Positions 2,410-53,786 of a DNA stretch of 64,000 nucleotides are shown here, one piece after another. Position 1 is the first letter of the stretch; every line of letters begins with the position of its first letter. The translations under genes were made by a program, and so were the position numbers. Under the pieces are notes generated by a model. That model saw nothing but the letters and a program-made list of their open reading frames with translations. It was not told the origin of the DNA and made no database searches. The stretch lies in assembly GCA_044892525.1 (NCBI GenBank), contig CM097887.1, positions 81,818,397 through 81,882,396 on the forward strand, written 5' to 3'. The stretch is from Schmidtea polychroa. Lineage: Eukaryota.

Positions 2410-4621
2410 ATGGAAAAACACACAACGATGATGCAATCGCCTACGAATGAATTACTCATCAATCTTAATCAAAAATTACCGAATTTTGGATTACTCAATT
2501 GCAAAATTGCAAAATCTTCAATCATATCTTTGTTGAAATCTCAAATTCAACAATCTCAAGCTATTTTGGATTTTATTTCAAAAGATTCGGAAGAGCCTTC
2601 AATTCTGGAACCTGTTGAATCAATTGAGGACATGCCTGAAGATTCAATGAAATTCTCTGAAGAAAAGATTCCACAACTTTCTACTATGCCTTTTTCAATT
2701 GAAGAAAGATTTCAGATTCTTGAGAAGACTATTGAATCTGTGTGTGGTAGGATTGATTTGATTTTTAATTCCGTAAATGATTATAATAAAAATATTGTTA
2801 AAGAGAATGGGAATCTAAATGAGAATACTAATACTGATTCTACTTTGGATTCTTATTCTAATAATGATGACTTTAAAATAAAAAAATTTAACAAATTATC
2901 TAAGGTTAATAATATTGTTGATTCAAAAAATACTTTAGTTTTAGGTTCAAAGTCAAATATTAAAATTAATCCTGTTAATTTGTCTAACAAATTAACTAGA
3001 TATTTATCGAAAAAAGAACGTGTGGAATTTTTGAAAAAATTTCCACGTTTTCTAAAATTAATTAAATTAAAAAATTCAAAATTTAAAGATAATTCAATTA
3101 ATTCTGAATTATCTTTAATTACTAAAAATGATTTTAACTTTATCACTGAATATGACCATTTGTATTTTCTTAATGGCCATTTTTTTGTCGTTATAAATTT
3201 AGACAAAAAATTAAAATCAAAAATTAAACCAAATAAATCTAATAATTATACTTTTATTAGTAAAATATGTAATTTAAATTTAAATACTAAAAATTTTATT
3301 TTAGTTCCAAATATAATTAAAAGGTTTTTATTTTCTCTTTCTAGCAAATTAGCTGGAACTACTTCAATTAAAAATAATAATCATAAGGGACTTATTATAA
3401 ATAAAATTCTACAAAATTTGAAAGATGAAAACCTGCTACCTGACTTTCTTCTTAGTTCAGAACTTAAGTTTGTCGACGGTGATTTTTTAATGAAAGACGT
3501 CTTTCAATCTCTAGATTGTTCTTTTACTTCTCCTAATGAAACTCGTATGGATTTGTCTAGATCACAATTAAATTTGTTATTTAAGAAATTTCCAGAGTTG
3601 AAGGAAATGTGTTTTGTCGAAAATACATCCAAAGATGCTTCCAATTTAATTAATATTAATAAATGAATTGAAATTAAATAGGAACTTCCCAAATAATATT
3701 TTTTTTGAATTTGGTAAATTTGTTAAAATTGCTAAAGATGAAAAGATTATATTTTCAACAAATGGGTCATCTGATGTACAGTTTAATCTTGGTCTATTTA
3801 ATCTTTTAGATATTATTAAAATTGACAGTGAATTGAATGATTTAGTTCTTCAACCTGAATCTTCTATGAGGCTTGTCAGTTTGGTTTTCCATTTGAATTA
3901 CTTGTTTTTAACAAAAGGTATTGAAATTTCTGGAAATATTCCTTATGATAATTATGTTATTAATTATATTCGGAATGCCTTACTTTTACATGGTGTTGTA
4001 GATCCTAAATTTTGTGAATCTCTCACACTTGACGAATTTGATAATTGGAGCGCTGACATGATAGAAAGAATTCCTTCTTCGTCATATTACTCTCAAAGTT
4101 GCAAGGAAAAGTTATTAAAATATAGGCAATGGAAACTAGAGGGGGAAGTTAATAAACTAAGAAATATTATTTCGCCTGAGACAATTAATGTTGTTAATAG
4201 ATTTTTGATTTCATTGGATGACTCTAATAAATCTATTAAGGAAGCAACTTTGAGTTTAGATGAACTAATGGATAAAATTAATACATTTAAACTAGGCGAC
4301 AATGACCCAGAAATTTTGAAATCTAAGCGGCTACTATACTTTATTTTGAGAGACAAGAAGTTGTTTCTAAGAAATAACAGTAAAATCTTCCAGTTACCTA
4401 TGACATGCAGAAAGATATGCACTCCAAAAATGTCATTATGTATTCACGAACTCTTGGACTTTCTGAAGGGGATAGAAAATCATTCATCTCCGATCTTTCC
4501 TACAATAGTTGACTCTCCATTGGTTATTGAATCACTTCCAACTGATATAGACGCTGAGACGGATACAATAAAATCTCGTACTCGAAATGGTCGAAGAAGA
4601 GCGTTATCCGATTCTAAATGA
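2410..4621 (+). pseudogene. ORF1 haplotype A (~736 aa if repaired), +1 frameshift near 3655-3667
   Basis: Track ORFs 2383-3666 and 3668-4621 align end to end with the 758-aa ORF1 of other copies; 13 nt stand where the others have 12. Confidence 0.85.
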
Positions 4622-4626
4622 AAATG

Positions 4627-4687
4627 TGTGCCTGCATCAGTGAAAATATCTGCTCCGTTCTCATATGAAACTGATGCAGAATGCACA
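4627..4687 (+). promoter_or_regulatory. Candidate stop-codon readthrough stem-loop 5 nt after the ORF1 TGA; equivalents at 15560, 23654, 31481, 39827, 48438, 57049
   Basis: TGTGC-CTGCATCAGT (4627-4641) pairs with ACTGATGCAG (4670-4679) and GCACA (4683-4687); stem invariant in all 7 copies. Confidence 0.6.
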
Positions 4688-7600
4688 AATAAACTTTCTG
4701 AAATTGACCAAACACGCTGGTTTACTGATGATGAAATTGATTATTTCCTTCTACATCATATCAATAATCCAATGTTTACCTTTATAAGATGTTTCATTGT
4801 TAGTATCTTATGTTCTGATATTGCTGAAAATGTTGTTGATCTTCCCAAAGCTATTTTTGAAGCTCAAGTAATTCTATGTCCACTCAACATTAACAACTCA
4901 CATTGGGTCTTGTTTGTTTATTGTAAATCTTCATTAACTTCTTATTTTATCGATCCGATCTTGAAGAATAGAAATAGATTAGTAAATAAGGAGAGAGCTG
5001 TTAAAATAAACAATGTATTAAACTGTACTTTCAATCTTGATTCATTAATAATTGAACACCCGTATAAAGATCTTGTTTATCAAGATAATAATTACGATTG
5101 TGGTCCTTTCATTTGCGGTTATGCGATGATTGTATCTCAAGAATGGAGCTCAATTCCTAATACGTTTGTCGAATACATTAGGAAACAATTGTTTCACTGT
5201 CAATCTATTTCTACTGTATCAGGAGGTGGCTTATCTAAAAATCATTTTCTCAATAAAATCAACTTCAAAAAGGCAATAAAACCTAAAAGCAAACCCATTA
5301 TGAATGTCAAAATTATAAACCCTAATAATGAGAAAGCTTGTGTCTCATCTCTGATAAGCAAATGGTACGAAAAATATCCAAGTATATTAGTTCTTTCTCC
5401 CGAAATAACAAATAGTTTAATCAGTCAAAATGATAATTTTATAATTGAAAATATTACATTTTTGCAATTTAGAAACGTTGATCATATAATTTGTATAATT
5501 CCTAACGATAATTGCTGGTGTCTATTGTTTTGCTCAGTCAAATATGGACATAGTTATCTTTTTGATCTTAAACCTGGTTCGATTACTGAAAGATTGATAG
5601 GAATTTGTGAAAATATTACCGATTATTTGAATAAATTTACTCTAAATAAAAAGGTTTATTTTGAAAAGAATCAAAATGCTTTTCGTTTAAAAATTTCATC
5701 TGAAGATCCGTTTGAATATGCAGTTGGGTACATTGCCTTCTTAGAAAAATATCTTTTTAATAGAATATTTGATAGAGATTATGTGATTAAAACTCTCAAA
5801 CATATGAATGTGCAGCAGGCAATTGAAATTAACAAAAATTTAAATTTAATTAATTGCAAAATTACTGATAAAATTATAACTAATTTTTTTAATAACTTGA
5901 AACATTCCTCAGATTTTATTTTACTTAATAATACAATGTGCACTGCAATTTATGAAGACTGTACTCAATATCTGAAAGATTTTTTAAATATTGAGCATTT
6001 GATAAAAGCACAGGTTATTTTTTGTATTATGGCCCCTCCTAAAGCTCAAGAAATATTGTTTGTCATTGACTATAAAACTGATGAGCATTACTTTCTCAAT
6101 CCCTCAACTTTAATTACTAATTTTAATTATTTATTTACTAGTCAAACTTTGTTGCATAAAATCAACGAAATTAGAGAATCGGCCGGTTGTTGTATAAAAT
6201 CTGGTAATATTCCGCATGATGTTCGTGGTTCTGGCCTTGTGAGTCGTGTACTCATTTGTGCTTTTATAAAAAACTATATTTCTGATTTATCTTTAGAGAA
6301 CCTCAATTTATTTGATATAGGCAGTGTAATTACTTCTTTGTTACCTCCAATAACGGAAACGATCAAGGTTTCGAAAAAAGACTTAAATGTTAAAAAAGAA
6401 ATTGGAAAACCTTCTTTGGAGCGTCGAATTGAGAAAATTAATCTCCTTTTATCAAATTTAGAAAACAGCAACGTTAATGAAATCTGTAAGATAATCATTG
6501 ACAATTCATTGCGTCAAAGATCAGATGACAAAACTATGATTCGTAGACCTTATCTGGGAAATAAACCTTCTTACGACAAACCTGACAAAAATATACTAAT
6601 ATCTGGCTTCCTATCTAATATGAAATTGACAGTGAATAAAATACTGGCTGATGAGAAAATTGATGAAAGACCTTCAATAACTGACTACATTTCTAATTTC
6701 ACTCATTCTGATCCTGTCATTAAATCTTACGATAAAGTGTTTAATTTCTGTCTGAGTTCTTTGTCAACTCTAGTTCTGAATCTAATTTCCACTGAAGATG
6801 TAAAGTTTGAAATTAAAAAAGCAGACAACACTTCTCCTGGACTTGATGATATCAAGTATAAAGATTTATCTATTTTTGATCCTGAATACAAATTATTGAC
6901 ATTTTTCTTTAACAAAATAATAGTCGATAAAAATGTTCCAGAATGTTTAAAATCTTTCAAAACAATTATGATTCCGAAGCCTGATAAAGGTGACAAGTAC
7001 ACTTTAGTTTCTTCATGGCGACCAATAGCTCTATTGTCAGTCATTTACAAAGTGTTTGCGTCAGTGTTAGCTAGTCGTTTGACTAGTTGGGTGAAGGTCA
7101 ATAATTTACTACACATTGGTCAGAAAGGAGGCTCAATCCATGACGGATGTGTTGAACATAACTCTGTTCTTTCTTCCTGCTTGGAACACTCAAAATACAG
7201 TAAAAACACTCCAATTGCTATAGCCTGGCTTGATATTAAAGACGCCTTTGGCAGTGTCCCTCATGATTACATGTGGAAAATCCTGCGTCGCGTTGGAGTC
7301 AGTGAGGAATTCACCAACATCTTGAAGCTGTTATATACCGATACAAGTTCTTTCTACACTTGTGGTCCAATTATTACACCAAACATTGCCATTAAACAGG
7401 GTGTCAAACAAGGATGCCCTATTTCAATGATTTTGTTTGCAATTGCGATAAATCCTGTTCTTGAATCTGTTAGTCAATCAAATGTGAAACCTTTCAAAAT
7501 TGCTGGATCTTCGGTTCAAGTTCTTGCATATGCTGATGACATTGCACTTGTTGCAAATAATGTTTCCGATTTACAACGCATAATTGACATTGCAGTCGAT

Positions 7601-9166
7601 ACTGCTAATGAAATAGGTTTTGAATATCGACCTGAAAAGTGTGCTTTTCTTGAACTTCCAAATATTAACTCTGAAAGTAAAATCGCAATCAATGGAATAA
7701 ATATTAAGAAACTTTTACCAAACGAATTTTACCAATATCTGGGAGTTCCAGTCGGTGAGGAAACTGACCAAAGTCCTTACGAGATTTTGAATAAAGTTAT
7801 TGTTGATGCAAATAAAATTGCAGAATCTGACTTGTTGGGATGGCAAAAATTGAAAGCCTACAAAGTCTTTCTACACTTGCGCCTAATCTTTCCATTTAGA
7901 ACGAGAGAAATAAAGATCAGTGCTCTTTCAACAACACAAGTTAATTGTACGAGTAAACTGAGAAGTATTCTAAGAAAGATCTTGAATTTGCCCAACCATT
8001 CTGAGACCAGTTATCTTTACAACTCCATTGAAAATGGAGGTGCGTCTTGTATTGATCTTCTTGATGAATATCATACACAGACGATTAGTCATTTTTTCCG
8101 ACTCTTTACCTCTAATTGCATGTTCACTCGTAATATCAATATTGACTCTTTGAAATTCGTCACTGGTCCTCGACTGGGAATCAAGGAACCATCAATGCAA
8201 GAGAGTTTCAACTGGATAAATGGAGCTGAAAATATCAAAACTCATTCTGGAAAGAAAACGAGATTCTATCGACCTCGGATAGCAATCAAGTACTTTCAAA
8301 GAACTCATGGTATTACCTTGTCTTTTGAAGTCGAGAAAAATGAGCCTGTTCTTCGATTTACAACTATCGAACGTGGTACTTGTGTGTTGACAGCTTTGAA
8401 TCGGAAAGCGATTTCTAAAATCATACATATTGCACTTTATGATGCTTATTTTTCTAAATGGAAATTAAGTAGCACGAGTGGATCTTGTGCTTATAGTTTA
8501 TCACCGAAAATCAATAAAGCGATTTACAATGGCAATCTTCGTGAAAGTCCTTGGAAATTCATACATCGTGCACGTACAAACACATTGTCTACCTTTGCTA
8601 AACCTTATCGAAAACCTGATGAAAGACTTTGTAGGCGTTGTCATATTGAAGAGGAAACACTTTGCCATGTTCTGCAAACATGCAAAATTCACCAAATCCT
8701 TGCTCTTAAAAGACATAACGAATGCTTACGACTTATTACTGAGCAACTGAAAAATCCTTTTCTTATTGTTGTTATTGACCACACTTGTTCACTTGTTGTT
8801 GACTCTAAGGAGCGAGTTGATTTAATGATAACGGATAATGATAAAAAGAAAATTTTCATGGTAGACGTCAAATGTCCTTTTGACACTCTACAGACCTTTG
8901 AAACGGTAGATAAAGGAAATTTGACAAAATACGATAATCTTCGACAGCAAATACAAGTTGCAAAGCCAAATTTTAAGGTGGAACTTTATACTTGTATCAT
9001 TGGCTCATTAGGTTCTGTTCCACCAATGACATATGATGTGCTTGAGAAGATTGGAGTACCTAATCATAAAGTTGAATCTCTTGTAAGAGAATGTGCAATG
9101 AGCAATATAATGCACTCGGCTAAATCTTGGCATTACCATGCATATGGTATCTTACCAGGCTTCTAA
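4628..9166 (+). CDS. ORF2: Ulp1/C48 protease (plus 2 degenerate repeats) - reverse transcriptase - CCHC - restriction-like endonuclease, 1512 aa from GTG; true start uncertain
   Basis: H92/D109/Q152/C158 (SHW, IDP, QDNNYDCG); RT motifs SPGLD, WRPIAL, LDIKDAF, GVKQGCP, YADD (7529), YQYLG; CRRCx8Hx4C (8630-8683); RHN, VD, DVK, KY endonuclease motifs. Confidence 0.95.
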   Translation: MPASVKISAPFSYETDAECTNKLSEIDQTRWFTDDEIDYFLLHHINNPMFTFIRCFIVSILCSDIAENVVDLPKAIFEAQVILCPLNINNSHWVLFVYCKSSLTSYFIDPILKNRNRLVNKERAVKINNVLNCTFNLDSLIIEHPYKDLVYQDNNYDCGPFICGYAMIVSQEWSSIPNTFVEYIRKQLFHCQSISTVSGGGLSKNHFLNKINFKKAIKPKSKPIMNVKIINPNNEKACVSSLISKWYEKYPSILVLSPEITNSLISQNDNFIIENITFLQFRNVDHIICIIPNDNCWCLLFCSVKYGHSYLFDLKPGSITERLIGICENITDYLNKFTLNKKVYFEKNQNAFRLKISSEDPFEYAVGYIAFLEKYLFNRIFDRDYVIKTLKHMNVQQAIEINKNLNLINCKITDKIITNFFNNLKHSSDFILLNNTMCTAIYEDCTQYLKDFLNIEHLIKAQVIFCIMAPPKAQEILFVIDYKTDEHYFLNPSTLITNFNYLFTSQTLLHKINEIRESAGCCIKSGNIPHDVRGSGLVSRVLICAFIKNYISDLSLENLNLFDIGSVITSLLPPITETIKVSKKDLNVKKEIGKPSLERRIEKINLLLSNLENSNVNEICKIIIDNSLRQRSDDKTMIRRPYLGNKPSYDKPDKNILISGFLSNMKLTVNKILADEKIDERPSITDYISNFTHSDPVIKSYDKVFNFCLSSLSTLVLNLISTEDVKFEIKKADNTSPGLDDIKYKDLSIFDPEYKLLTFFFNKIIVDKNVPECLKSFKTIMIPKPDKGDKYTLVSSWRPIALLSVIYKVFASVLASRLTSWVKVNNLLHIGQKGGSIHDGCVEHNSVLSSCLEHSKYSKNTPIAIAWLDIKDAFGSVPHDYMWKILRRVGVSEEFTNILKLLYTDTSSFYTCGPIITPNIAIKQGVKQGCPISMILFAIAINPVLESVSQSNVKPFKIAGSSVQVLAYADDIALVANNVSDLQRIIDIAVDTANEIGFEYRPEKCAFLELPNINSESKIAINGINIKKLLPNEFYQYLGVPVGEETDQSPYEILNKVIVDANKIAESDLLGWQKLKAYKVFLHLRLIFPFRTREIKISALSTTQVNCTSKLRSILRKILNLPNHSETSYLYNSIENGGASCIDLLDEYHTQTISHFFRLFTSNCMFTRNINIDSLKFVTGPRLGIKEPSMQESFNWINGAENIKTHSGKKTRFYRPRIAIKYFQRTHGITLSFEVEKNEPVLRFTTIERGTCVLTALNRKAISKIIHIALYDAYFSKWKLSSTSGSCAYSLSPKINKAIYNGNLRESPWKFIHRARTNTLSTFAKPYRKPDERLCRRCHIEEETLCHVLQTCKIHQILALKRHNECLRLITEQLKNPFLIVVIDHTCSLVVDSKERVDLMITDNDKKKIFMVDVKCPFDTLQTFETVDKGNLTKYDNLRQQIQVAKPNFKVELYTCIIGSLGSVPPMTYDVLEKIGVPNHKVESLVRECAMSNIMHSAKSWHYHAYGILPGF

Positions 9167-9675
9167 TTATTAAAATTCGATTGAAAATAATTAATTTTGT
9201 TTCTCATATTAATTAAAAAAAAAAAAAAACTGTCATCATTATTTATTTAAAGCATTATGAGGAATTGAATATCATTTTAATCTTGCCACTTATTAGTTTT
9301 GATAACCTAAACATGATAATAATCTTTTCAATTCATCATGAAGAGGTGGTCTGTTCTAATTTCAGATTCGATAATGATGAAAAAATTCAGCTGAAACAAG
9401 AAATCTTTGCAGAAACCTAGAATGGCGCTTAATTAATTTGGCTCTAAAACTTCTGCAAGTGTTATGCTAAGCCGGAAACGAATCTCCGATGAAATCCAAT
9501 ATGCCTGAGAAATTTCAAGAAACAAAGTGCTTTCGAGAAGAGTATTCTCCCAACCGATATAATTATCATAGAGATTTTGATCACCCAAGTGCCGACATTT
9601 CTTGAATGGCTGTTCCAAGTTGAACGTTCTCGACAGATAAAAATCCAAAAACTTGTTATATTAATAAAATTTTAT

Positions 9676-9717
9676 CTAGTAAACCAGGGGTCGTGAGTTC
9701 AATTCTCACCGAAGGCA
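9676..9717 (+). pseudogene. 3' half (nt 32-73) of interrupted tRNA-Thr
   Basis: CTAGTAAACCAG...GAAGGCA directly after the element 3' end. Confidence 0.95.
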
Positions 9718-9902
9718 ATTTTTTCCTAAATAAATTTTATCACATCAACATTAATCTTGTCTTGTCCGTTTTTGTTTCTAGTATTAGAAAAATTCCAACA
9801 AAAAATCCTATTGATTGTCCGACTTGTGTATGGGTTGGATTTTGTTTTTTTCGGTACAGAATGCCACTTTAATAATTTAAATAGAAATCTCTCAAATTGC
9901 AA

Positions 9903-9975
9903 GCCTTCGTAGCTCAGTGGTTAGAGCACTGGTCTAGTAAACCAGGGGTCGTGAGTTCAATTCTCACCGAAGGCA
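9903..9975 (+). tRNA. trnT: tRNA-Thr(AGT)
   Basis: Consensus copy. Confidence 0.97.
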
Positions 9976-10160
9976 ATTTTTTCCTAAATAAATTTTATCA
10001 CATCAACATTAATCTTGTCTTGTCCGTTTTTGTTTCTAGTATTAGAAAAATTCCAACAAAAAATCCTATTGATTGTCCGACTTGTGTATGGGTTGGATTT
10101 TGATTTTTTCGGTACAGAATGTTACTTTATAGATTTAAATAGAAATCTCTCAAATTGCAA

Positions 10161-10233
10161 GCCTTCGTAGCTCAGTGGTTAGAGCACTGGTCTAGTAAAC
10201 CAGGGGTCGTGATTTCAATTCTCACCGAAGGCA
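10161..10233 (+). tRNA. trnT: tRNA-Thr(AGT) variant G53T (T stem/box B damaged)
   Basis: GTGATTTCAATT instead of GTGAGTTCAATT (10213). Confidence 0.7.
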
Positions 10234-10418
10234 ATTTTTTCCTAAATAAATTTTATCACATCAACATTAATCTTGTCTTGTCCGTTTTTGTTTCTAGTAT
10301 TAGAAAAATTCCAACAAAAAATCCTATTGATTATCCGACTTGTGTATGGGTTGGATTTTGATTTTTTCGGTACAGAATGCCACTTTATAGATTTAAATAG
10401 AAATCTCTCAAATTGCAA

Positions 10419-10491
10419 GCCTTCGTAGCTCAGTGGTTAGAGCACTGGTCTAGTAAACCAGGGGTCGTGAGTTCAATTCTCACCGAAGGCA
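10419..10491 (+). tRNA. trnT: tRNA-Thr(AGT)
   Basis: Consensus copy. Confidence 0.97.
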
Positions 10492-10676
10492 ATTTTTTCC
10501 TAAATAAATTTTATCACATCAACATTAATCTTGTCTTGTCCGTTTTTGTTTCTAGTATTAGAAAAATTCCAACAAAAAATCCTATTGATTGTCCGACTTG
10601 TGTATGGGTTGGATTTTGATTTTTTCGGTACAGAATGTTACTTTATAGATTTAAATAGAAATCTCTCAAATTGCAA

Positions 10677-10749
10677 GCCTTCGTAGCTCAGTGGTTAGAG
10701 CACTGGTCTAGTAAACCAGGGGTCGTGAGTTCAATTCTCACCGAAGGCA
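10677..10749 (+). tRNA. trnT: tRNA-Thr(AGT)
   Basis: Consensus copy. Confidence 0.97.
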
Positions 10750-10934
10750 ATTTTTTCCTAAATAAATTTTATCACATCAACATTAATCTTGTCTTGTCCG
10801 TTTTTGTTTCTAGTATTAGAAAAATTCCAACAAAAAATCCTATTGATTGTCCGACTTGTGTATGGGTTGGATTTTGATTTTTTCGGTACAGAATGCCACT
10901 TTATAGATTTAAATAGAAATCTCTCAAATTGCAA

Positions 10935-11007
10935 GCCTTCGTAGCTCAGTGGTTAGAGCACTGGTCTAGTAAACCAGGGGTCGTGAGTTCAATTCTCACC
11001 GAAGGCA
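10935..11007 (+). tRNA. trnT: tRNA-Thr(AGT)
   Basis: Consensus copy. Confidence 0.97.
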
Positions 11008-11192
11008 ATTTTTTCCTAAATAAATTTTATCACATCAACATTAATCTTGTCTTGTCCGTTTTTGTTTCTCGTATTAGAAAAATTCCAACAAAAAATCCTA
11101 TTGATTGTCCGACTTGTGTATGGGTTGGATTTTGATTTTTTCGGTACAGAATGCCACTTTATAGATTTAAATAGAAATCTCTCAAATTGCAA

Positions 11193-11265
11193 GCCTTCGT
11201 AGCTCAGTGGTTAGAGCACTGGTCTAGTAAACCAGGGGTCGTGAGTTCAATTCTCACCGAAGGCA
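11193..11265 (+). tRNA. trnT: tRNA-Thr(AGT)
   Basis: Consensus copy. Confidence 0.97.
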
Positions 11266-11450
11266 ATTTTTTCCTAAATAAATTTTATCACATCAACATT
11301 AATCTTGTCTTGTCCGTTTTTGTTTCTAGTATTAGAAAAATTCCAACAAAAAATCCTATTGATTGTCCGACTTGTGTATGGGTTGGATTTTGTTTTTTTC
11401 GGTACAGAATGCCACTTTAATAATTTAAATAGAAATCTCTCAAATTGCAA

Positions 11451-11523
11451 GCCTTCGTAGCTCAGTGGTTAGAGCACTGGTCTAGTAAACCAGGGGTCGT
11501 GAGTTCAATTCTCACCGAAGGCA
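11451..11523 (+). tRNA. trnT: tRNA-Thr(AGT)
   Basis: Consensus copy. Confidence 0.97.
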
Positions 11524-11708
11524 ATTTTTTCCTAAATAAATTTTATCACATCAACATAAATCTTGTCTTGTCCGTTTTTGTTTCTAGTATTACAAAAATT
11601 CCAACAAAAAATCCTATTGATTGTCCGACTTGTGTATGGGTTGGATTTTGATTTTTTCGGTACAGAATGCCACTTTATAGATTTAAATAGAAATCTCTCA
11701 AATTGCAA

Positions 11709-11781
11709 GCCTTCGTAGCTCAGTGGTTAGAGCACTGGTCTAGTAAACCAGGGGTCGTGAGTTCAATTCTCACCGAAGGCA
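11709..11781 (+). tRNA. trnT: tRNA-Thr(AGT)
   Basis: Consensus copy. Confidence 0.97.
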
Positions 11782-11966
11782 ATTTTTTCCTAAATAAATT
11801 TTATCACATCAACATTAATCTTGTCTTGTCCGTTTTTGTTTCTAGTATTAGAAAAATTCCAACAAAAAATCCTATTGATTGTCCGACTTGTGTATGGGTT
11901 GGATTTTGTTTTTTTCGGTACAGAATGCCACTTTAATAATTTAAATAGAAATCTCTCAAATTGCAA

Positions 11967-12039
11967 GCCTTCGTAGCTCAGTGGTTAGAGCACTGGTCTA
12001 GTAAACCAGGGGTCGTGAGTTCAATTCTCACCGAAGGCA
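11967..12039 (+). tRNA. trnT: tRNA-Thr(AGT)
   Basis: Consensus copy. Confidence 0.97.
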
Positions 12040-12224
12040 ATTTTTTCCTAAATAAATTTTATCACATCAACATAAATCTTGTCTTGTCCGTTTTTGTTTC
12101 TAGTATTAGAAAAATTCCAACAAAAAATCCTATTGATTGTCCGACTTGTGTATGGGTTGGATTTTGATTTTTTCGGTACAGAATGCCACTTTATAGATTT
12201 AAATAGAAATCTCTCAAATTGCAA

Positions 12225-12297
12225 GCCTTCGTAGCTCAGTGGTTAGAGCACTGGTCTAGTAAACCAGGGGTCGTGAGTTCAATTCTCACCGAAGGCA
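12225..12297 (+). tRNA. trnT: tRNA-Thr(AGT)
   Basis: Consensus copy. Confidence 0.97.
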
Positions 12298-12482
12298 ATT
12301 TTTTCCTAAATAAATTTTATCACATCAACATTAATCTTGTCTTGTCCGTTTTTGTTTCTAGTATTAGAAAAATTCCAACAAAAAATCCTATTGATTGTCC
12401 GACTTGTGTATGGGTTGGATTTTGATTTTTTCGGTACAGAATGTTACTTTATAGATTTAAATAGAAATCTCTCAAATTGCAA

Positions 12483-12555
12483 GCCTTCGTAGCTCAGTGG
12501 TTAGAGCACTGGTCTAGTAAACCAGGGGTCGTGAGTTCAATTCTCACCGAAGGCA
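12483..12555 (+). tRNA. trnT: tRNA-Thr(AGT)
   Basis: Consensus copy. Confidence 0.97.
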
Positions 12556-12740
12556 ATTTTTTCCTAAATAAATTTTATCACATCAACATTAATCTTGTCT
12601 TGTCCGTTTTTGTTTCTCGTATTAGAAAAATTCCAACAAAAAATCCTATTGATTTTCCGACTTGTGTATGGGTTGGATTTTGATTTTTTCGGTACAGAAT
12701 GCCACTTTATAGATTTAAATAGAAATCTCTCAAATTGCAA

Positions 12741-12813
12741 GCCTTCGTAGCTCAGTGGTTAGAGCACTGGTCTAGTAAACCAGGGGTCGTGAGTTCAATT
12801 CTCACCGAAGGCA
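12741..12813 (+). tRNA. trnT: tRNA-Thr(AGT)
   Basis: Consensus copy. Confidence 0.97.
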
Positions 12814-12998
12814 ATTTTTTCCTAAATAAATTTTATCACATCAACATTAATCTTGTCTTGTCCGTTTTTGTTTCTAGTATTAGAAAAATTCCAACAAAAA
12901 ATCCTATTGATTGTCCGACTTGTGTATGGGTTGGATTTTGTTTTTTTCGGTACAGAATGCCACTTTAATAATTTAAATAGAAATCTCTCAAATTGCAA

Positions 12999-13071
12999 GC
13001 CTTCGTAGCTCAGTGGTTAGAGCACTGGTCTAGTAAACCAGGGGTCGTGAGTTCAATTCTCACCGAAGGAA
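12999..13071 (+). tRNA. trnT: tRNA-Thr(AGT) variant C72A
   Basis: CGAAGGAA end (13070). Confidence 0.75.
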
Positions 13072-13256
13072 ATTTTTTCCTAAATAAATTTTATCACATC
13101 AACATAAATCTTGTCTTGTCCGTTTTTGTTTCTAGTATTACAAAAATTCCAACAAAAAATCCTATTGATTGTCCGACTTGTGTATGGGTTGGATTTTGAT
13201 TTTTTCGGTACAGAATGCCACTTTATAGATTTACATAGAAATCTCTCAAATTGCAA

Positions 13257-13277
13257 GCCTTCGTAGCTCAGTGGTTA
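13257..13277 (+). pseudogene. 5' half of tRNA-Thr interrupted by copy 2
   Basis: nt 1-21 then ATG. Confidence 0.95.
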
Positions 13278-15554
13278 ATGGAAAAACACACAACGATGAT
13301 GCAATCGCCTACGAATGAATTACTCATCAATCTCAATCAAAAATTACCGAATTTTGGATTACTCAATTGCAAAATTGCAAAATCTTCAATCATGTCTATG
13401 TTGAAATCTCAAATTCAACAATCTCAAGCTATTTTGGACCTGATTTCAAAAGATTCTGAAGAACCTTCAATTCTGGAACCGGTTGAATCAATTAAAGAAA
13501 TGCCAGAAGATTCTTTGGAATGCTCAAAGGAAAAGATGCCACTCCTTTTAAATTTGCCTTTTCCAATTGAGGAAAGATTTCAGATACTGGAGAAGTCTAT
13601 CGAATCTATATCTGGTAGGATTGATTTGATTTCTAATTTTCTTAATGTTAATAATAATGACAATAATAAAAACTTTTTTATTAAAAATTTAAAAGTAAAT
13701 AATATTTCAAATAAGCATCTTCCTGTAATTTCTAACACTAAACCTGAAATTAATTCAAACTACTCTTCTAAATTAGTGGATAGTTCCGATAAATTGAAGG
13801 CGCCTTTTGTTGATGTTGAAATAGAGAAGTCGAAAACTCTGCATGTGGATTATAAGGGAAGTAATACTGCGTTTAAAGAGGATAATGATATAGATAGATC
13901 AACTCGTATTTTGACAAAAAAAGAACGAGCTAATTTTTTGAAGAGCTTTCCAAAGTTTATTAATTTAATCAAATTAGGTGAATCAAAATTTAAAGAGAAT
14001 TTAATTAATTATGAACTTAATTTAATAACTAAATCAAAATTAAACTTTAATATTAATAATTTTGAAAAGTTATATTTTGAAAATGGAAAGTTTTTTATTT
14101 CTATTTATAACAAAAATGGAATGAGACCTGAGGTTAGGAATATGAAAGCTTTAATAAAACCTAAAATTATCTCTAGCAGTGGCCGAATTTTAAATAAAAC
14201 TTTTATTTCAAGTTTAATTCGTACTGACAACAATTATAGTAAAATCTCTGCTTCTTTAGCAATTAAGAAATTTTTATTTGCATTTTCTGACAAATTAGCT
14301 GCAACTGTTTCCATTAAAAATATTAATCAAAAGGGCTCTGTCATTAATAAAGAATTAGATTTACTAAAAAAAGAAAATAAACTTCCACAATTTTTAATAA
14401 ATTCAGATATTAAATATCTAAATGGGGAATTTGTAATAAATGACATATTCAGTCCTTCAGAATCTCAAAATGAAGTTGTGAATCGCAGAGAGTTGTCTAG
14501 ATCACAATTAAATCAATTATTTAAAAGTCATCCAGAGCTGAAAGAGATGTGTTTTGTTGAAAACTCATCTAAATGTGCATCAAAATTGACTAATTTGTTA
14601 CATAATTTAAAATTAAATAATAACTTTCTTGAGAATATTGAGTTTGATTCAGGAAGGTTTTTCAAATCTAAAGAAACTGTAAATAATGAATCAATTGGTG
14701 CGTCTGACATCATGTTTAACTTGGGACTGCTCAACTTCATTGACATTTCTAAGAAAAATGATGATTTTAAGGAACTTCTACTTTCAACTTCTTCTCCTCA
14801 AAAGCTGGTTGATTTGATCTTTACGATAAATTATAAAATCTTGACGAAGGACATCAACTACTTGAACAATATTACCTATGGAAATTATGTCATGAATTAT
14901 TTTATAAATATTTTACTTTTACACTCTGTAGCTGATCTTGAAACTTGTGAATCTCTCACAATTGACGACTTTGATTATTGGAGCGCTGACATGATAGAAA
15001 AAATTCCTTCTTCGTCATATTACTCTCAAAGTTGCAAGGAAAAGTTACTTAAATATAGGCAGTGGAAACTAGAGGGGGAAGTTGATAAACTAAGAAATAT
15101 TATTTCGCCTGAGACAATTAATGTTGTTAATAAATTTTTGATTTCATCGGATGACTCTAATAAATCTATTAAGGAAGCAACTTTGAGTTTAGATGAACAA
15201 ATGGACAAAATTAATACATTTAAACTAGGCGACAATGACCCAGACATTTTGAAATCTAAGCGGTTACTATACTTTATTTTGAGAGACAAGAAGTTGTTTC
15301 TAAGAAATAACAGCAAAATCTTCCAATTACCTATGACATGCAAAAAAATATGCACTCCAAAAATGTCATTATGTATTCATGAACTCTTGGACTTTCTTAA
15401 GGGGATAGAAAATCATTCATCTCCGATCTTTCCTACAATAGTTGACTCTCCATTGGTTATTGAATCACTTCCAACTGATATAGACGCTGAGACGGATACA
15501 ATAAAATCTCGTACTCGAAATGGTCGAAGAAGAGCGTTATCCGATTCTAAATGA
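13278..15554 (+). CDS. ORF1 haplotype B, 758 aa, unknown function
   Basis: Long ORF from the junction ATG (MEKHTT) to TGA; coiled-coil-like N-terminal segment, basic C-terminus (KSRTRNGRRR). Confidence 0.9.
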   Translation: MEKHTTMMQSPTNELLINLNQKLPNFGLLNCKIAKSSIMSMLKSQIQQSQAILDLISKDSEEPSILEPVESIKEMPEDSLECSKEKMPLLLNLPFPIEERFQILEKSIESISGRIDLISNFLNVNNNDNNKNFFIKNLKVNNISNKHLPVISNTKPEINSNYSSKLVDSSDKLKAPFVDVEIEKSKTLHVDYKGSNTAFKEDNDIDRSTRILTKKERANFLKSFPKFINLIKLGESKFKENLINYELNLITKSKLNFNINNFEKLYFENGKFFISIYNKNGMRPEVRNMKALIKPKIISSSGRILNKTFISSLIRTDNNYSKISASLAIKKFLFAFSDKLAATVSIKNINQKGSVINKELDLLKKENKLPQFLINSDIKYLNGEFVINDIFSPSESQNEVVNRRELSRSQLNQLFKSHPELKEMCFVENSSKCASKLTNLLHNLKLNNNFLENIEFDSGRFFKSKETVNNESIGASDIMFNLGLLNFIDISKKNDDFKELLLSTSSPQKLVDLIFTINYKILTKDINYLNNITYGNYVMNYFINILLLHSVADLETCESLTIDDFDYWSADMIEKIPSSSYYSQSCKEKLLKYRQWKLEGEVDKLRNIISPETINVVNKFLISSDDSNKSIKEATLSLDEQMDKINTFKLGDNDPDILKSKRLLYFILRDKKLFLRNNSKIFQLPMTCKKICTPKMSLCIHELLDFLKGIENHSSPIFPTIVDSPLVIESLPTDIDAETDTIKSRTRNGRRRALSDSK

Positions 15555-15560
15555 AAATGT

Positions 15561-18500
15561 GTGCCTGCATCAGTGAAAATATCTGCTCCGTTCTCATATG
15601 AAACTGATGCAGAATGCACAAATAAACTTTCTGAAATTGACCGAACACGCTGGTTTACTGATGATGAAATTGATTATTTCCTTCTACATCATATCAATAA
15701 TCCAATGTTTACCTTTATAAGATGTTTCATTGTTAGTATCTTATGTTCTGATATTGCTGAAAATGTTGTTGATCTTCCCAAAGCTATTTTTGAAGCTCAA
15801 GTAATTCTATGTCCACTCAACATTAACAACTCACATTGGGTCTTGTTTGTTTATTGTAAATCTTCATTAACTTCTTATTTTATCGATCCGATCTTGAAGA
15901 ATAGAAATAGATTAGTAAATAAGGAGAGAGCTGTTAAAATAAACAATGTATTAAATTGTACTTTCAATCTTGATTCATTAATAATTGAACACCCGTATAA
16001 AGATCTTGTTTATCAAGATAATAATTACGATTGTGGTCCTTTCATTTGCGGTTATGCGATGATTGTATCGCAAGAATGGAGCTCAATTCCTAATACGTTT
16101 GTCGAATACATTAGGAAACAATTGTTTCACTGTCAATCTATTTCTACTGTATCAGGAGGTGGCTTATCTAAAAATCATTTTCTCAATAAAATCAACTTCA
16201 AAAAGGCAATAAAACCTAAAAGCAAACCCATTATGAATGTCAAAATTATAAACCCTAATAATGAGAAAGCTTGTGTCTCATCTCTGATAAGCAAATGGTA
16301 CGAAAAATATCCAAGTATATTAGTTCTTTCTCCCGAAATAACAAATAGTTTAATCAGTCAAAATGATAATTTTATAATTGAAAATATTACATTTTTGCAA
16401 TTTAGAAACGTTGATCATATAATTTGTATAATTCCTAACGATAATTGCTGGTGTCTATTGTTTTGCTCAGTCAAATATGGACATAGTTATCTTTTTGATC
16501 TTAAACCTGGTTCGATTACTGAAAGATTGATAGGAATTTGTGAAAATATTACCGATTATTTGAATAAATTTACTCTAAATAAAAAGGTTTATTTTGAAAA
16601 GAATCAAAATGCTTTTCGTTTAAAAATTTCATCTGAAGATCCGTTTGAATATGCAGTTGGGTACATTGCCTTCTTAGAAAAATATCTTTTTAATAGAATA
16701 TTTGATAGAGATTATGTGATTAAAACTCTCAAACATATGAATGTGCAGCAGGCAATTGAAATTAACAAAAATTTAAATTTAATTAATTGCAAAATTACTG
16801 ATAAAATTATAACTAATTTTTTTAATAACTTGAAACATTCCTCAGATTTTATTTTACTTAATAATACAATGTGCACTGCAATTTATGAAGACTGTACTCA
16901 ATATCTGAAAGATTTTTTAAATATTGAGCATTTGATAAAAGCACAGGTTATTTTTTGTATTATGGCCCCTCCTAAAGCTCAAGAAATATTGTTTGTCATT
17001 GACTATAAAACTGATGAGCATTACTTTCTCAATCCCTCAACTTTAATTACTAATTTTAATTATTTATTTACTAGTCAAACTTTGTTGCATAAAATCAACG
17101 AAATTAGAGAATCGGCCGGTTGTTGTATAAAATCTGGTAATATTCCGCATGATGTTCGTGGTTCTGGCCTTGTGAGTCGTGTACTCATTTGTGCTTTTAT
17201 AAAAAACTATATTTCTGATTTATCTTTAGAGAACCTCAATTTATTTGATATAGGCAGTGTAATTACTTCTTTGTTACCTCCAATAACGGAAACGATCAAG
17301 GTTTCGAAAAAAGACTTAAATGTAAAAAAAGAAATTGAAAAACCTTCTTTGGAGCGTCGAATTGAGAAAATTAATCTCCTTTTATCAAATTTAGAAAACA
17401 GCAACGTTAATGAAATCTGTAAGATAATCATTGACAATTCATTGCGTCAAAGATCAGATGACAAAACTATGATTCGTAGACCTTATCTGGGAAATAAACC
17501 TTCTTACGACAAACCTGACAAAAATATACTAATATCTGGCTTCCTATCTAATATGAAATTGACAGTGAATAAAATACTGGCTGATGAGAAAATTGATGAA
17601 AGACCTTCAATAACTGACTACATTTCTAATTTCACTCATTCTGATCCTGTCATTAAATCTTACGATAAAGTGTTTAATTTCTGTCTGAGTTCTTTGTCAA
17701 CTCTAGTTCTGAATCTAATTTCCACTGAAGATGTAAAGTTTGAAATTAAAAAAGCAGACAACACTTCTCCTGGACTTGATGATATCAAGTATAAAGATTT
17801 ATCTATTTTTGATCCTGAATACAAATTATTGACATTTTTCTTTAACAAAATAATAGTCGATAAAAATGTTCCAGAATGTTTAAAATCTTTCAAAACAATT
17901 ATGATTCCGAAGCCTGATAAAGGTGACAAGTACACTTTAGTTTCTTCATGGCGACCAATAGCTCTATTGTCAGTCATTTACAAAGTGTTTGCGTCAGTGT
18001 TAGCTAGTCGTTTGACCAGTTGGGTGAAGGTCAATAATTTACTACACATTGGTCAGAAAGGAGGCTCAATCCACGACGGATGTGTTGAACATAACTCTGT
18101 TCTTTCTTCCTGCTTGGAACACTCAAAATACAGTAAAAACACTCCAATTGCTATAGCCTGGCTTGATATTAAAGACGCCTTTGGCAGTGTCCCTCGTGAT
18201 TACATGTGGAAAATCCTGCGTCGCGTTGGAGTCAGTGAGGAATTCACCAACATCTTGAAGCTGTTATATACCGATACAAGTTCTTTCTACACTTGTGGTC
18301 CAATTATTACACCAAACATTGCCATTAAACAGGGTGTCAAACAAGGATGCCCTATTTCAATGATTTTGTTTGCAATTGCGATAAATCCTGTTCTTGAATC
18401 TGTTAGTCAATCAAATGTGAAACCTTTCAAAATTGCTGGATCTTCGGTTCAAGTTCTTGCATATGCTGATGACATTGCACTTGTTGCAAATAATGTTTCC

Positions 18501-20099
18501 GATTTACAACGCATAATTGACATTGCAGTCGATACTGCTAATGAAATAGGTTTTGAATATCGACTTGAAAAGTGTGCTTTTCTTGAACTTCCAAATATTA
18601 ACTCTGAAAGTAAAATCACAATCAATGGAATAAATATTAAGAAACTTTTACCAAACGAATTTTACCAATATCTGGGAGTTCCAGTCGGTGAGGAAACTGA
18701 CCAAAGTCCTTACGAGATTTTGAATAAAGTTATTGTTGATGCAAATAAAATTGCAGAATCTGACTTGTTGGGATGGCAAAAATTGAAAGCCTACAAAGTC
18801 TTTCTACACTCGCGCCTAATCTTTCCATTTAGAACGAGAGAAATAAAGATCAGTGCTCTTTCAACAACACAAGTTAATTGTACGAGTAAACTGAGAAGTA
18901 TTCTAAGAAAGATCTTGAATTTGCCCAACCATTCTGAGACCAGTTATCTTTACAACTCCATTGAAAATGGAGGTGCGTCTTGTATTGATCTTCTTGATGA
19001 ATATCATACACAGACGATTAGTCATTTTTTCCGACTCTTTACCTCTAATTGCATGTTCACTCGTAATATCAATATTGACTCTTTGAAATTCGTCACTGGT
19101 CCTCGACTGGGAATGAAGGAACCATCAATGCAAGAGAGTTTCAACTGGATAAATGGAGCTGAAAATATCAAAACTCATTCTGGAAAGAAAACGAGATTCT
19201 ATCGACCTCGGATAGCAATCAAGTACTTTCAAAGAACTCATGGTATTACCTTGTCTTTTGAAGTCGAGAAAAATGAGCCTGTTCTTCGATTTACAACTAT
19301 CGAACGTGGTACTTGTGTGTTGACAGCTTTGAATCGGAAAGCGATTTCTAAAATCATACATATTGCACTTTATGATGCTTATTTTTCTAAATGGAAATTA
19401 AGTAGCACGAGTGGATCTTGTGCTTATAGTTTATCACCGAAAATCAATAAAGCGATTTACAATGGCAATCTTCGTGAAAGTCCTTGGAAATTCATACATC
19501 GTGCACGTACAAACACATTGTCTACCTTTGCTAAACCTTATCGAAAACCTGATGATAGACTTTGTAGGCGTTGTCATATTGAAGAGGAAACACTTTGCCA
19601 TGTTCTGCAAACATGCAAAATTCACCAAATCCTTGCTCTTAAAAGACATAACGAATGCTTACGACTTATTACTGAGCAACTGAAAAATCCTTTTCTTATT
19701 GTTGTTATTGACCACACTTGTTCACTTGTTGTTGACTCTAAGGAGCGAGTTGATGTAATGATAACGGATAATGATAAAAAGAAAATTTTCATGGTAGACG
19801 TCAAATGTCCTTTTGACACTCTACAGACCTTTGAAACGGTAGATAAAGGAAATTTGACAAAATACGATAATCTTCGACAGCAAATACAAGTTGCAAAGCC
19901 AAATTTTAAGGTGGAACTTTATACTTGTATCATTGGGTCATTAGGTTCTGTTCCACCAATGACATATGATGTGCTTGAGAAGATTGGAGTACCTAATCAT
20001 AAAGTTGAATCTCTTGTAAGAGAATGTGCAATGAGCAATATAATGCACTCGGCTAAATCTTGGCATTACCATGCATATGGTATCTTACCAGGCTTCTAA
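15561..20099 (+). CDS. ORF2 protease-RT-RLE, 1512 aa
   Basis: Same motifs as copy 1. Confidence 0.95.
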   Translation: MPASVKISAPFSYETDAECTNKLSEIDRTRWFTDDEIDYFLLHHINNPMFTFIRCFIVSILCSDIAENVVDLPKAIFEAQVILCPLNINNSHWVLFVYCKSSLTSYFIDPILKNRNRLVNKERAVKINNVLNCTFNLDSLIIEHPYKDLVYQDNNYDCGPFICGYAMIVSQEWSSIPNTFVEYIRKQLFHCQSISTVSGGGLSKNHFLNKINFKKAIKPKSKPIMNVKIINPNNEKACVSSLISKWYEKYPSILVLSPEITNSLISQNDNFIIENITFLQFRNVDHIICIIPNDNCWCLLFCSVKYGHSYLFDLKPGSITERLIGICENITDYLNKFTLNKKVYFEKNQNAFRLKISSEDPFEYAVGYIAFLEKYLFNRIFDRDYVIKTLKHMNVQQAIEINKNLNLINCKITDKIITNFFNNLKHSSDFILLNNTMCTAIYEDCTQYLKDFLNIEHLIKAQVIFCIMAPPKAQEILFVIDYKTDEHYFLNPSTLITNFNYLFTSQTLLHKINEIRESAGCCIKSGNIPHDVRGSGLVSRVLICAFIKNYISDLSLENLNLFDIGSVITSLLPPITETIKVSKKDLNVKKEIEKPSLERRIEKINLLLSNLENSNVNEICKIIIDNSLRQRSDDKTMIRRPYLGNKPSYDKPDKNILISGFLSNMKLTVNKILADEKIDERPSITDYISNFTHSDPVIKSYDKVFNFCLSSLSTLVLNLISTEDVKFEIKKADNTSPGLDDIKYKDLSIFDPEYKLLTFFFNKIIVDKNVPECLKSFKTIMIPKPDKGDKYTLVSSWRPIALLSVIYKVFASVLASRLTSWVKVNNLLHIGQKGGSIHDGCVEHNSVLSSCLEHSKYSKNTPIAIAWLDIKDAFGSVPRDYMWKILRRVGVSEEFTNILKLLYTDTSSFYTCGPIITPNIAIKQGVKQGCPISMILFAIAINPVLESVSQSNVKPFKIAGSSVQVLAYADDIALVANNVSDLQRIIDIAVDTANEIGFEYRLEKCAFLELPNINSESKITINGINIKKLLPNEFYQYLGVPVGEETDQSPYEILNKVIVDANKIAESDLLGWQKLKAYKVFLHSRLIFPFRTREIKISALSTTQVNCTSKLRSILRKILNLPNHSETSYLYNSIENGGASCIDLLDEYHTQTISHFFRLFTSNCMFTRNINIDSLKFVTGPRLGMKEPSMQESFNWINGAENIKTHSGKKTRFYRPRIAIKYFQRTHGITLSFEVEKNEPVLRFTTIERGTCVLTALNRKAISKIIHIALYDAYFSKWKLSSTSGSCAYSLSPKINKAIYNGNLRESPWKFIHRARTNTLSTFAKPYRKPDDRLCRRCHIEEETLCHVLQTCKIHQILALKRHNECLRLITEQLKNPFLIVVIDHTCSLVVDSKERVDVMITDNDKKKIFMVDVKCPFDTLQTFETVDKGNLTKYDNLRQQIQVAKPNFKVELYTCIIGSLGSVPPMTYDVLEKIGVPNHKVESLVRECAMSNIMHSAKSWHYHAYGILPGF

Positions 20100-20834
20100 T
20101 TATTAAAATTCGATTGAAAATAATTAATTTTGTTTCTCATATTAATTAAAAAAAAAAAAAACTGTCATCATTATTTATTTAAAGCATTATGAGGAATTGA
20201 ATATCATTTTAATCTTGCCACTTATTAGTTTTGATAACCTAAACATGATAATAATCTTTTCAATTCATCATGAAGAGGTGGTCTGTTCTAATTTCAGATT
20301 CGATAATGATGAAAAAATTCAGCTGAAACAAGAAATCTTTGCAGAAACCTAGAATGGCGCTTAATTAATTTGGCTCTAAAACTTCTGCAAGTGTTAAGCT
20401 AAGCCGGAAACGAATCTCCGATGAAATCCAATATGCCTGAGAAATTTCAAGAAACAAAGTGCTTTCGAGACGAGTATTCTCCCAACCGATATAATTATCA
20501 TAGAGATTTTGATCACCCAAGTGCCGACATTTCTTGAATGGCTGTTCCAAGTTGAACGTTCTCAACAGATAAAAATCCAAAAACTTGTTATATTAATAAA
20601 ATTTTATCTAGTAAACCAGGGGTCGTGAGTTCAATTCTCACCGAAGGCAATTTTTTCCTAAATAAATTTTATCACATCAACATTAATCTTGTCTTGTCCG
20701 TTTTTGTTTCTAGTATTAGAAAAATTCCAACAAAAAATCCTATTGATTGTCCGACTTGTGTATGGGTTGGATTTTGATTTTTTCGGTACAGAATGCCACT
20801 TTATAGATTTAAATAGAAATCTCTCAAATTGCAA

Positions 20835-23648: not shown

Positions 23649-23654
23649 AGATGT

Positions 23655-28193: not shown

Positions 28194-28692
28194 TTATTAA
28201 AGTTCGATTAAAAATAATTAATTTTGTTTCTCATATTAATTAAAAACTGTCATCATTATTTATTTAAAGCATTATGAGGAATCGAATATCATTTTGATCT
28301 TGCCACTTATTAGTTTTGATAGTCTAAACATGATAATAATCTTTTCAATTCATCATGGAGAGGTGGTCCATTCTAATTTCAGATTCAACAATGATGAACA
28401 AATTCAGCTGAAACGAGAAAAGTTTGCAGAAACCTAGAATAGAGCTTAATTAATTTGGCTCTAAAATTTCTGCAAGTGTTAAGCTAAGCCGGAAACGAAT
28501 CTCCGATGAAATCCAATATGCCTGAGAAATTTCAAGAAACAAAGTGCTTTCGAGATGAGTATTCTCCCAACCGATATATTTATCACAGAGATTTTGATCA
28601 CCCAAGTGCCGACATTTCCTGAATGGCTGTTCCAAGTTGAACGTTCTCGACAGATAAAAATCCAAAAACTTGTTATATTAATAAAATTTTAT

Positions 28693-31475: not shown

Positions 31476-31481
31476 AGATGT

Positions 31482-39821: not shown

Positions 39822-39827
39822 AAATGT

Positions 39828-48432: not shown

Positions 48433-48438
48433 AGATGT

Positions 48439-53713: not shown

Positions 53714-53786
53714 GCCTTCGTAGCTCAGTGGTTAGAGCACTGGTCTAGAAAACCAGGGGTCGTGAGTTCAATTCTCACCGAAGGCA
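53714..53786 (+). tRNA. tRNA-Thr body with AGA (Ser) anticodon
   Basis: Loop ctAGAaa (T36A at 53749), short variable loop of the Thr body. Confidence 0.7.

Follow-up and report, generated by a model that had tools for sequence, protein, structure and literature searches.

An in-frame UGA followed by a putatively selected RNA stem, a candidate signal for stop codon readthrough, separates the two open reading frames of a tRNA-targeting retrotransposon

The tRNA-Thr array and the junction within its inserted element

We examined a stretch of 64,000 nucleotides (nt) from Schmidtea polychroa (GenBank assembly GCA_044892525.1, contig CM097887.1, positions 81,818,397 to 81,882,396 of the forward strand), referred to here as the window. 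The window is filled by tRNA-Thr(AGT) genes in a tandem array whose unit is 258 base pairs (bp) long; 36 tRNA genes were called in it. This array is broken by a 7.3-kb element, present in seven full copies and one that is partial, all located at a single site in the tRNA gene. Judged by its sequence, this element is a retrotransposon without long terminal repeats (a non-LTR retrotransposon) of the restriction-like endonuclease (RLE) type resembling the NeSL group. It carries two open reading frames (ORFs), ORF1 and ORF2, separated by one in-frame UGA that is closely followed by a predicted stem. Comparison with relatives lends good support to this stop and stem forming, where ORF1 meets ORF2, a signal that is family-wide and under selection, and stimulation of UGA readthrough by the stem is the mechanism that we consider best.

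The insertion site in tRNA-Thr is identical at 8/8 5′ junctions and 7/7 3′ junctions, and about 10 bp of the tRNA gene are absent there, without target duplication. ORF1 begins, with its ATG, immediately behind the 5′ half of the tRNA gene that serves as target (2410, 13278, 21372, 29199, 37545, 46156, 54767, and 62305). Because ORF1 directly abuts the tRNA gene in this way, the element has no 5′ untranslated region (UTR) of its own. Copy 1, whose coordinates we use for the junction, spans 2410 to 9675; it and all features described below lie on the plus strand.

The first-pass annotation of this DNA had claimed that ORF1, the UGA, and ORF2 lie in one frame, and all seven full copies bear this out. 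Each has the junction TCT AAA TGA A(A/G)A TGT GTG CCT, with the stop at 4619, 15552, 23646, 31473, 39819, 48430, and 57041, respectively. In copy 2, ORF1 (758 amino acids [aa], ATG at 13278), the UGA, and ORF2 (1,514 aa) form a joined frame of 2,273 aa, with one UGA in 2,274 codons. The annotation had given this same length for the joined product; it is correct for copy 2. In copy 1, at whose coordinates the junction had been described, ORF1 is frameshifted near 3650 to 3666.

In copy 1, the UGA at 4619 to 4621 has the context AAA-UGA-A, with A at −1 and −2 and A rather than C at +4. An unpaired 5-nt spacer follows (4622 to 4626; AAATG or AGATG). The 5′ arm of the stem (4627 to 4641) consists of a lower part of 5 bp (4627 to 4631), which includes a GTG at 4628 to 4630, and a perfect upper part of 10 bp (4632 to 4641), so that the lower pairs begin 5 nt and the upper stem 10 nt past the stop. 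After a loop of 28 nt (4642 to 4669), the 3′ arm (4670 to 4687) supplies the upper strand (4670 to 4679), a 3-nt bulge (4680 to 4682), and the lower strand (4683 to 4687). The earlier description of a 10-bp stem with a 5-bp extension starting 5 nt past the stop is thus accurate, with the bulge between the two parts. The arms encode the peptides V-P-A-S-V and T-D-A-E-C-T, with nine codons between them.

The stem folds at −21.2 kcal/mol (z score, −3.82), and none of 200 shuffled sequences was as stable, in a comparison of the kind that the annotation had proposed. When copy 2 was folded in a 350-nt context, pair probabilities were 0.79 to 0.88 for the lower 5 bp and 0.98 to 1.0 for the upper 10 bp. 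This is the sole perfect inverted repeat of at least 10 bp, with a loop of up to about 60 nt, in the 7,330-nt element, and it ranks second of 209 windows by z score. A second hairpin of equal stability is found in ORF2 of copy 2, past the reverse transcriptase (RT) domain (18948 to 19020; −21.8 kcal/mol; z score, −4.0 in 70 nt).

The stem is unchanged among the copies, and the single nearby variant, a T>G in copy 5, falls in the loop; both observations had been made before and hold. As an argument for selection, however, the invariance fails: only 14 of 2,601 neighboring columns vary among the seven copies, and the probability of no variant in 30 nt is 0.85, so copies this alike give it no evidential weight.

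No in-frame AUG is available near the start of ORF2. The first lies at +151, and the AUG at +3 is out of frame; this codon (4624 to 4626, in the spacer and upstream of the GTG) opens a 14-codon ORF that ends at 4666 to 4668 and has A at −3. The GUG itself has U at −3 and C at +4 and lies within the stem. That the first in-frame methionine falls past the WFTDD motif had been correctly noted, and its number needs a small correction: it is residue 51 when counting begins behind the stop and 49 when it begins at the GTG. We rejected frameshifting, since no slippery heptamer was found between 120 nt before and about 20 nt past the stop and both other reading frames end within 15 codons at the junction. 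A pseudoknot was likewise rejected, the best complement of the loop being just 6 nt and A/U-rich.

Relatives of the element

To look beyond the window, we searched 1.84 billion representatives with a query that linked ORF1 to the N-terminal 440 aa of ORF2. None of the 63 matches was a fused relative; each covers either ORF1 or ORF2. The same holds for 180 fetched proteins, of which 12 match ORF1, 166 match ORF2, and none matches both. Full-length relatives of ORF2 are about 1,500 to 1,540 aa long, and several lie on contigs of 7 to 8.3 kb, which leave room for an ORF1, with ORF2 left unextended upstream by gene finders. As no relative joins the two, the break between ORF1 and ORF2 is family-wide, and a nonsense mutation confined to a single lineage can be rejected on the same grounds. 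A “shorter” homolog search returned one irrelevant match among 4,745 candidates.

In a quick RT tree of 31 rows, built without named reference elements, the window falls in a 12-row clade (Shimodaira-Hasegawa-like approximate likelihood ratio test, 99) whose members are 33 to 50% identical to the window ORF2. Of these 12 ORF2s, 11 start at the position of the window's GTG and contain both arm peptides, the exception being P0013. The first two relatives found start with M-P-A-S exactly where the window has its GTG, and the second peptide follows nine residues later. Five more relatives in register came from the joined-query search, and all six of the new full-length ORF2s retrieved with the RT region alone begin with the same pattern. 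Among relatives with a nine-codon loop, 50 of 80 arm residues are identical to the window, compared with 11 of 72 loop residues; loop length in relatives ranges from 4 to 9 codons. Both flanks of the junction are predicted to be disordered, and the arm-peptide segment has a predicted local distance difference test (pLDDT) score of only about 33, so protein folding does not explain why the arm peptides are conserved. Met49 is not conserved, and since the first internal methionine lies past the catalytic His of the protease in 6 of the 12 clade members, a start of ORF2 at a methionine cannot be general.

In the register of the stem, each codon pairs through its first and second bases with the same two positions of its partner codon, which makes the pairing readable from amino acids. 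We applied this to 11 distinct arm pairs from 14 sequences, the relatives being known as proteins with their codons deduced. Pairing is predicted at 61 of 66 positions, 54 of them Watson-Crick. When the 3′ arms were shuffled among sequences, the means were 54.5 for pairing and 43.5 for Watson-Crick pairing, and the observed values were reached once and never, respectively, in 20,000 shuffles; with shuffling restricted to within the two subclades, 14 of 20,000 reached the observed value. Sliding the register by one or two codons gives 30 to 51 of 84, compared with 77 of 84 in the true register. Two-sided changes affect each of the three codon pairs: V-T to D-S (P0001 and P0008) or to T-V (P0071), S-D to P-G (P0016 and P0068 to P0070), and A-A to T-V (P0021). 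Exchanges of E for D and C for S touch bulge bases only. In 13 of 14 sequences the last residue of the 3′ arm is a threonine, and because its codon pairs fully with GT and half with AT, the start methionine called in the relatives is probably a GTG, as in the window.

These amino acid changes imply compensatory base pairs, which argues that the stem is old and under selection, and we consider an RNA stem selected at the start of ORF2 to be very probable. The first-pass annotation had proposed looking for a stop and stem conserved with covariation in related elements; as deduced from amino acids the stem answers that description, and the stop rests on the window.

Several sequences were left out of this analysis. 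Among the 19 candidates, P0004 is stem-compatible at 9 of 10 positions but shifted by one codon. No stem was found in register in P0013, P0014, P0017, P0028, and P0030; in P0030, a 10/10 pair of unrelated sequence is present, a value reached by 12 of 1,500 null scans. In P0024, P0025, P0027, P0036, and P0058 the leader is too short or the motif was not found, and P0072 and P0073 begin past the protease. Among the sequences that were counted, P0012, P0021, and P0040 are fragments, whose subclade was set by resemblance rather than by the tree.

The encoded proteins and the remaining copies

ORF2 of copy 1 (4622 to 9166; 1,514 aa) comprises a Ulp1 protease, two protease-like repeats, an RT, a CCHC knuckle, and a restriction-like endonuclease. 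The Ulp1/SENP-like cysteine protease domain (4718 to 5191) begins at the WFTDD motif, upstream of the first methionine, and has an intact His-Asp-Gln-Cys set. It matches Pfam Peptidase_C48 (E value, 1.9e-9) and has a SENP/Ulp1 fold in the predicted structure. The RT domain (6971 to 7747; aa 784 to 1042) matches Pfam RVT_1 (E value, 3.6e-28), and the closest solved relatives of ORF2 are R2 proteins (E value, 6e-88). Two C-terminal motifs, CRRC-x8-H-x4-C and R-x-D...D-x-K-C-P, are kept in alignment A3 without a profile match; by motif definition, we take them to be the CCHC knuckle and a PD-(D/E)xK endonuclease. Between protease and RT, two domains at about 5330 to 6330 (aa 240 to 570) mirror the secondary-structure pattern and motif spacing of the protease without its catalytic His and Cys motifs, and are probably degenerate Ulp1 repeats conserved in the clade.

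A Gly-Gly-Gly at 5222 to 5230, in a predicted disordered linker past the protease, is a candidate self-cleavage site, and a Gly-Gly is present at this position in 15 of the 18 sequences listed. Ulp1-family enzymes cleave after Gly-Gly, so that the Ulp1 domain may free the RT-endonuclease part by cutting its own linker.

ORF1 of copy 1 (2410 to 4618) has a divergent middle. For the window protein we found no Pfam family, no Atlas match, and no Foldseek match at an E value of 0.001, and structure comparison gave generic helical-hairpin matches alone (Z below 8), which does not by itself establish a new fold. The core (about aa 206 to 710) is well predicted, with disordered gaps, and matches no known family or fold. 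The C-terminal 45 aa or so are predicted to be disordered in the copy 2 model. Relatives of ORF1 are 630 to 960 aa long, and most end in charged tails, as does the window ORF1. A zinc-ribbon-like CxxC...CxxC is seen near the C terminus in four of six near-complete relatives (P0006, P0007, P0015, and P0035) and is absent from the window ORF1. In all six, the last ORF1 codon has A at its second position (background, 0.30 to 0.43), a weak hint recognized post hoc.

Between copies 1 and 2 lies a part of the host array (9903 to 13071; 258-bp unit), the target of the element. Both ORFs are intact in four of the seven full copies: copy 2 (13278 to 20607; ORF1, 13278 to 15551; UGA, 15552 to 15554; stem, 15560 to 15620; ORF2, 15555 to 20099), copy 5 (37545 to 44875), copy 6 (46156 to 53486), and copy 7 (54767 to 62056). 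Copy 3 (21372 to 28692) has an extra TAA at 24444 in ORF2, copy 4 (29199 to 36522) has a 1-nt deletion in ORF2, and copy 8 (62305 to 64000) ends at the window edge within ORF1. The middle of ORF1 in copy 1 (about 2780 to 4110) is only about 63% identical in nucleotides to copies 2 to 7, and its ORF2 is near-identical to theirs; copy 1 resembles a recombinant between two subfamilies. Copy 5 has its ORF1 3′ end in common with copy 1, and copy 3 deviates in the 3′ part of ORF2 and in the 3′ UTR. An internal poly(A) run of variable length (9215 to 9229 and equivalents) lies about 50 nt past the stop of ORF2 and 450 nt short of the 3′ terminus, and there is no poly(A) tail at the true 3′ end. Two of the 36 tRNA genes in the array have changed anticodons, one TGT and one AGA that is called as Ser (1357 to 1429 and 53714 to 53786).

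Readthrough, its alternatives, and known systems

Structure-stimulated readthrough of the UGA is, in our judgment, a rather probable explanation of the junction. A single bicistronic RNA would be translated, with most ribosomes terminating at the UGA and releasing the ORF1 protein. A minority would pause when the UGA occupies the A site and the 10-bp stem, which starts 10 nt past the stop, has reached the entry channel for mRNA. These ribosomes would then place a near-cognate residue, probably Trp, Cys, or Arg, at the UGA; as the junction lies in a disordered linker, the identity of this residue need not matter. The product would be a 2,273-aa ORF1-protease-RT-endonuclease polyprotein, made at a high ORF1:ORF2 ratio like that set by gag:gag-pol readthrough, from which the Ulp1 domain might release the RT-endonuclease at the Gly-Gly just behind itself. 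The in-frame UGA, the upstream AA, the 10-nt spacer, the lack of a conserved methionine, and the poor context of the GUG all favor this reading. UGA is described as the leakiest stop codon and upstream AA as a stimulator of readthrough (PMC10085805, PMC3159437), and spacers of 8 to 12 nt with stems of 10 to 12 bp are given for alphaviruses and a spacer of 8 nt for murine leukemia virus (MuLV) (PMC3159437). Of the original readthrough claim, then, the selected stop-plus-stem signal stands, and readthrough is its likeliest mechanism.

Several observations weigh against this reading or against the conservation on which it builds. The base after the UGA is A (UGA-AAA or UGA-AGA), which differs from the alphavirus-type UGA-C (CUA/CGG). 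A UGA followed by a 3′ structure in Tca2 gave no readthrough in a reporter, as described in PMC2194720. The six relatives held out from the initial set, taken alone, pair at 31 of 36 positions against a permutation mean of 29.0 (853 of 10,000; not significant). P0068, P0069, and P0070 have lost the top codon pair in part or in full, an A·G mismatch occurs in P0012, P0040, and P0067, and no stem was seen in the predicted N termini of P0013, P0017, and P0028. The 3′-arm motif was chosen after the first homologs had been seen, the base pairs of the relatives are read from amino acids alone, and the in-frame stop and spacer are known in the window only. Scans of bacterial and archaeal genomes yielded 0 of 43 and 3 of 17 candidates, the three being RT matches of 26 to 27% identity outside the clade; one scan candidate outside the clade, L001, has an ORF1-endonuclease-RT layout of the L1 type.

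Could ORF2 instead be reached by termination and reinitiation, with the stem holding ribosomes after the UGA and a restart at the GUG at 4628, or independent of any start codon, yielding an ORF2 of about 1,512 aa? The start-like codon, called M by gene finders, that sits exactly at this position in 11 of 12 clade members is expected under such a model too, and there is non-LTR precedent in SART1, where a structure downstream of the stop-restart site aids the process, and in the unconventional reinitiation of L1 (PMC5972666). The junction has neither a stop-start overlap nor an in-frame AUG, however, and the GUG is poor in context, base-paired, directly followed by the 10-bp stem, and preceded 4 nt upstream by an out-of-frame AUG. 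Pairing with the Thr codon in 13 of 14 sequences already accounts for conservation of the codon, the called start of P0004 lies one codon later, and reinitiation does not require the in-frame arrangement, which would arise by chance one time in three. We regard reinitiation as unlikely, though it is the strongest of the alternatives. Still less probable is expression of ORF2 from a separate RNA (made from an internal promoter or by processing or splicing) or through internal initiation, the stem then acting as a start or processing signal. The gag-UGA-pol junction of Tca2 did have a minor promoter and no readthrough in yeast (PMC2194720), and an element without its own 5′ UTR leaves its transcription unexplained. 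A non-AUG start would be needed even so, since an internal methionine start would truncate the protease in 6 of 12 clade members. A sense-strand intron, moreover, would be lost on retrotransposition.

The stem might also serve some other job, such as ribonucleoprotein packaging, ORF2 binding, or RNA stability, or the arm peptides might be a protein motif, with only basal leakage at the UGA. Covariation reveals structure rather than function, and the equally stable hairpin inside ORF2 is in keeping with other roles; yet the stem stays fixed at the start of ORF2 across sequences only 33 to 50% identical, and the changes of S to P with D to G and of A to T with A to V track base pairing, not side-chain chemistry. 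We think this improbable, to much the same degree as a separate RNA. The least likely of the alternatives is that the UGA is a sense codon, whether through selenocysteine, a reassigned host code, or A-to-I editing to UGG. Some selenocysteine codons do consist of a UGA followed by a stem-loop. However, no family of selenocysteine insertion sequence (SECIS) elements is among 35 Rfam matches (E values up to 5) over 4300 to 13500, and a single SECIS-like pattern was seen in the 3′ UTR, with a folding energy of just −3.9 kcal/mol. The site is a disordered linker rather than an active site, and a single UGA contrasts with 54 Cys and 16 Trp codons. As for editing, the UGA lies outside the stem, and the fused state expected from an edited template is absent in all copies and relatives.

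Taken together, the findings point to a real, old, and selected stop-plus-stem signal in a two-ORF, tRNA-targeting RLE family, and its most likely mode of action is one like gag-pol readthrough. A broader scenario, which we put forward tentatively, is that this lineage independently evolved gag-pro-pol logic, with stem-stimulated readthrough joining ORF1 to the enzymes and Ulp1 cutting at Gly-Gly. A full-text literature search found no report of stop codon readthrough in a non-LTR retrotransposon and no description of the present family. If correct, this would be the first structure-programmed readthrough in elements of the long interspersed nuclear element (LINE) type, and it would hint at what the Ulp1 domain does in NeSL-like elements. 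The cassette is compact (70 nt) and conserved among sequences that are 33 to 50% identical, and its natural compensatory variants make the mechanism directly testable. Either outcome would be informative, because GUG reinitiation after a 758-codon ORF is also unusual, and the family matters for work on site-specific retrotransposons.

R5, SLACS, and CZAR are two-ORF RLE elements, so we do not claim two ORFs alone as new. In our searches, no named element matched the combination of two ORFs, an ORF1 without an assigned family, protease repeats, and precise tRNA insertion, although a Repbase entry for it may exist. The nearest comparison is with the NeSL clade, in which NeSL-1 and Utopia-1_TSP have a Ulp1 domain and NeSL-1_TV, LIN15_SM, and LIN25_SM target tRNA genes (PMC4640811). 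Shared with that clade, as described there, are a Ulp1-like protease ahead of the RT and RLE and strict insertion in a multicopy RNA gene. Here, by contrast, a stop splits off an ORF1 of 760 to 960 aa that falls in no identified family, ORF2 includes protease-like repeats, and insertion is into tRNA-Thr. The features of NeSL and Utopia proper (one long ORF, N-terminal zinc fingers, and a spliced-leader or U2 target) were not found. We do not file the element under either, because it has two ORFs, no zinc finger ahead of the RT in ORF2, and a tRNA-Thr target. The closest named database matches are about 30% identical, and in the 31-row tree, which lacks named NeSL, Utopia, R5, and LIN references, the clade of the window is separate from named animal matches.

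For bicistronic non-LTR elements, the cases of ORF2 expression described are few, namely reinitiation (SART1 and L1), 2A skipping, and frameshifting. SART1 and L1 share with our element a bicistronic RNA, and SART1 also has, past the stop of ORF1, a structure that ORF2 expression requires. Stop and start overlap in SART1, and in L1 the AUG follows after a spacer of 63 nt (PMC5972666), whereas our junction lacks an in-frame AUG and a single stop is all that interrupts the frame. Tca2, Tj1, Tosmo1-3, and Tcry1 have an in-frame UGA between the first ORF and the protease-RT, with AA upstream (PMC10085805, PMC2194720). Those are LTR elements, however, the fission yeast ones using GAA-TGA-CT (PMC10085805), and we found no similarity of ORF1 to gag. 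The likeness extends to MuLV gag-pol (UAG, 8-nt spacer, and pseudoknot) and alphavirus nsP3-nsP4 (UGA), which have a single in-frame stop upstream of the polymerase (PMC3159437). A 10-bp stem at a 10-nt spacer, a variable loop, and compensatory changes, which in our element are deduced, are further shared features (PMC3159437). The present case differs in being a non-LTR element with UGA-A in place of UGA-C, a lower stem of 5 bp that begins only 5 nt past the stop, a short loop, and no pseudoknot found. Should readthrough hold, a recoding strategy of viruses and LTR elements would extend to LINE-type elements and gain a UGA-A context without the usual C.

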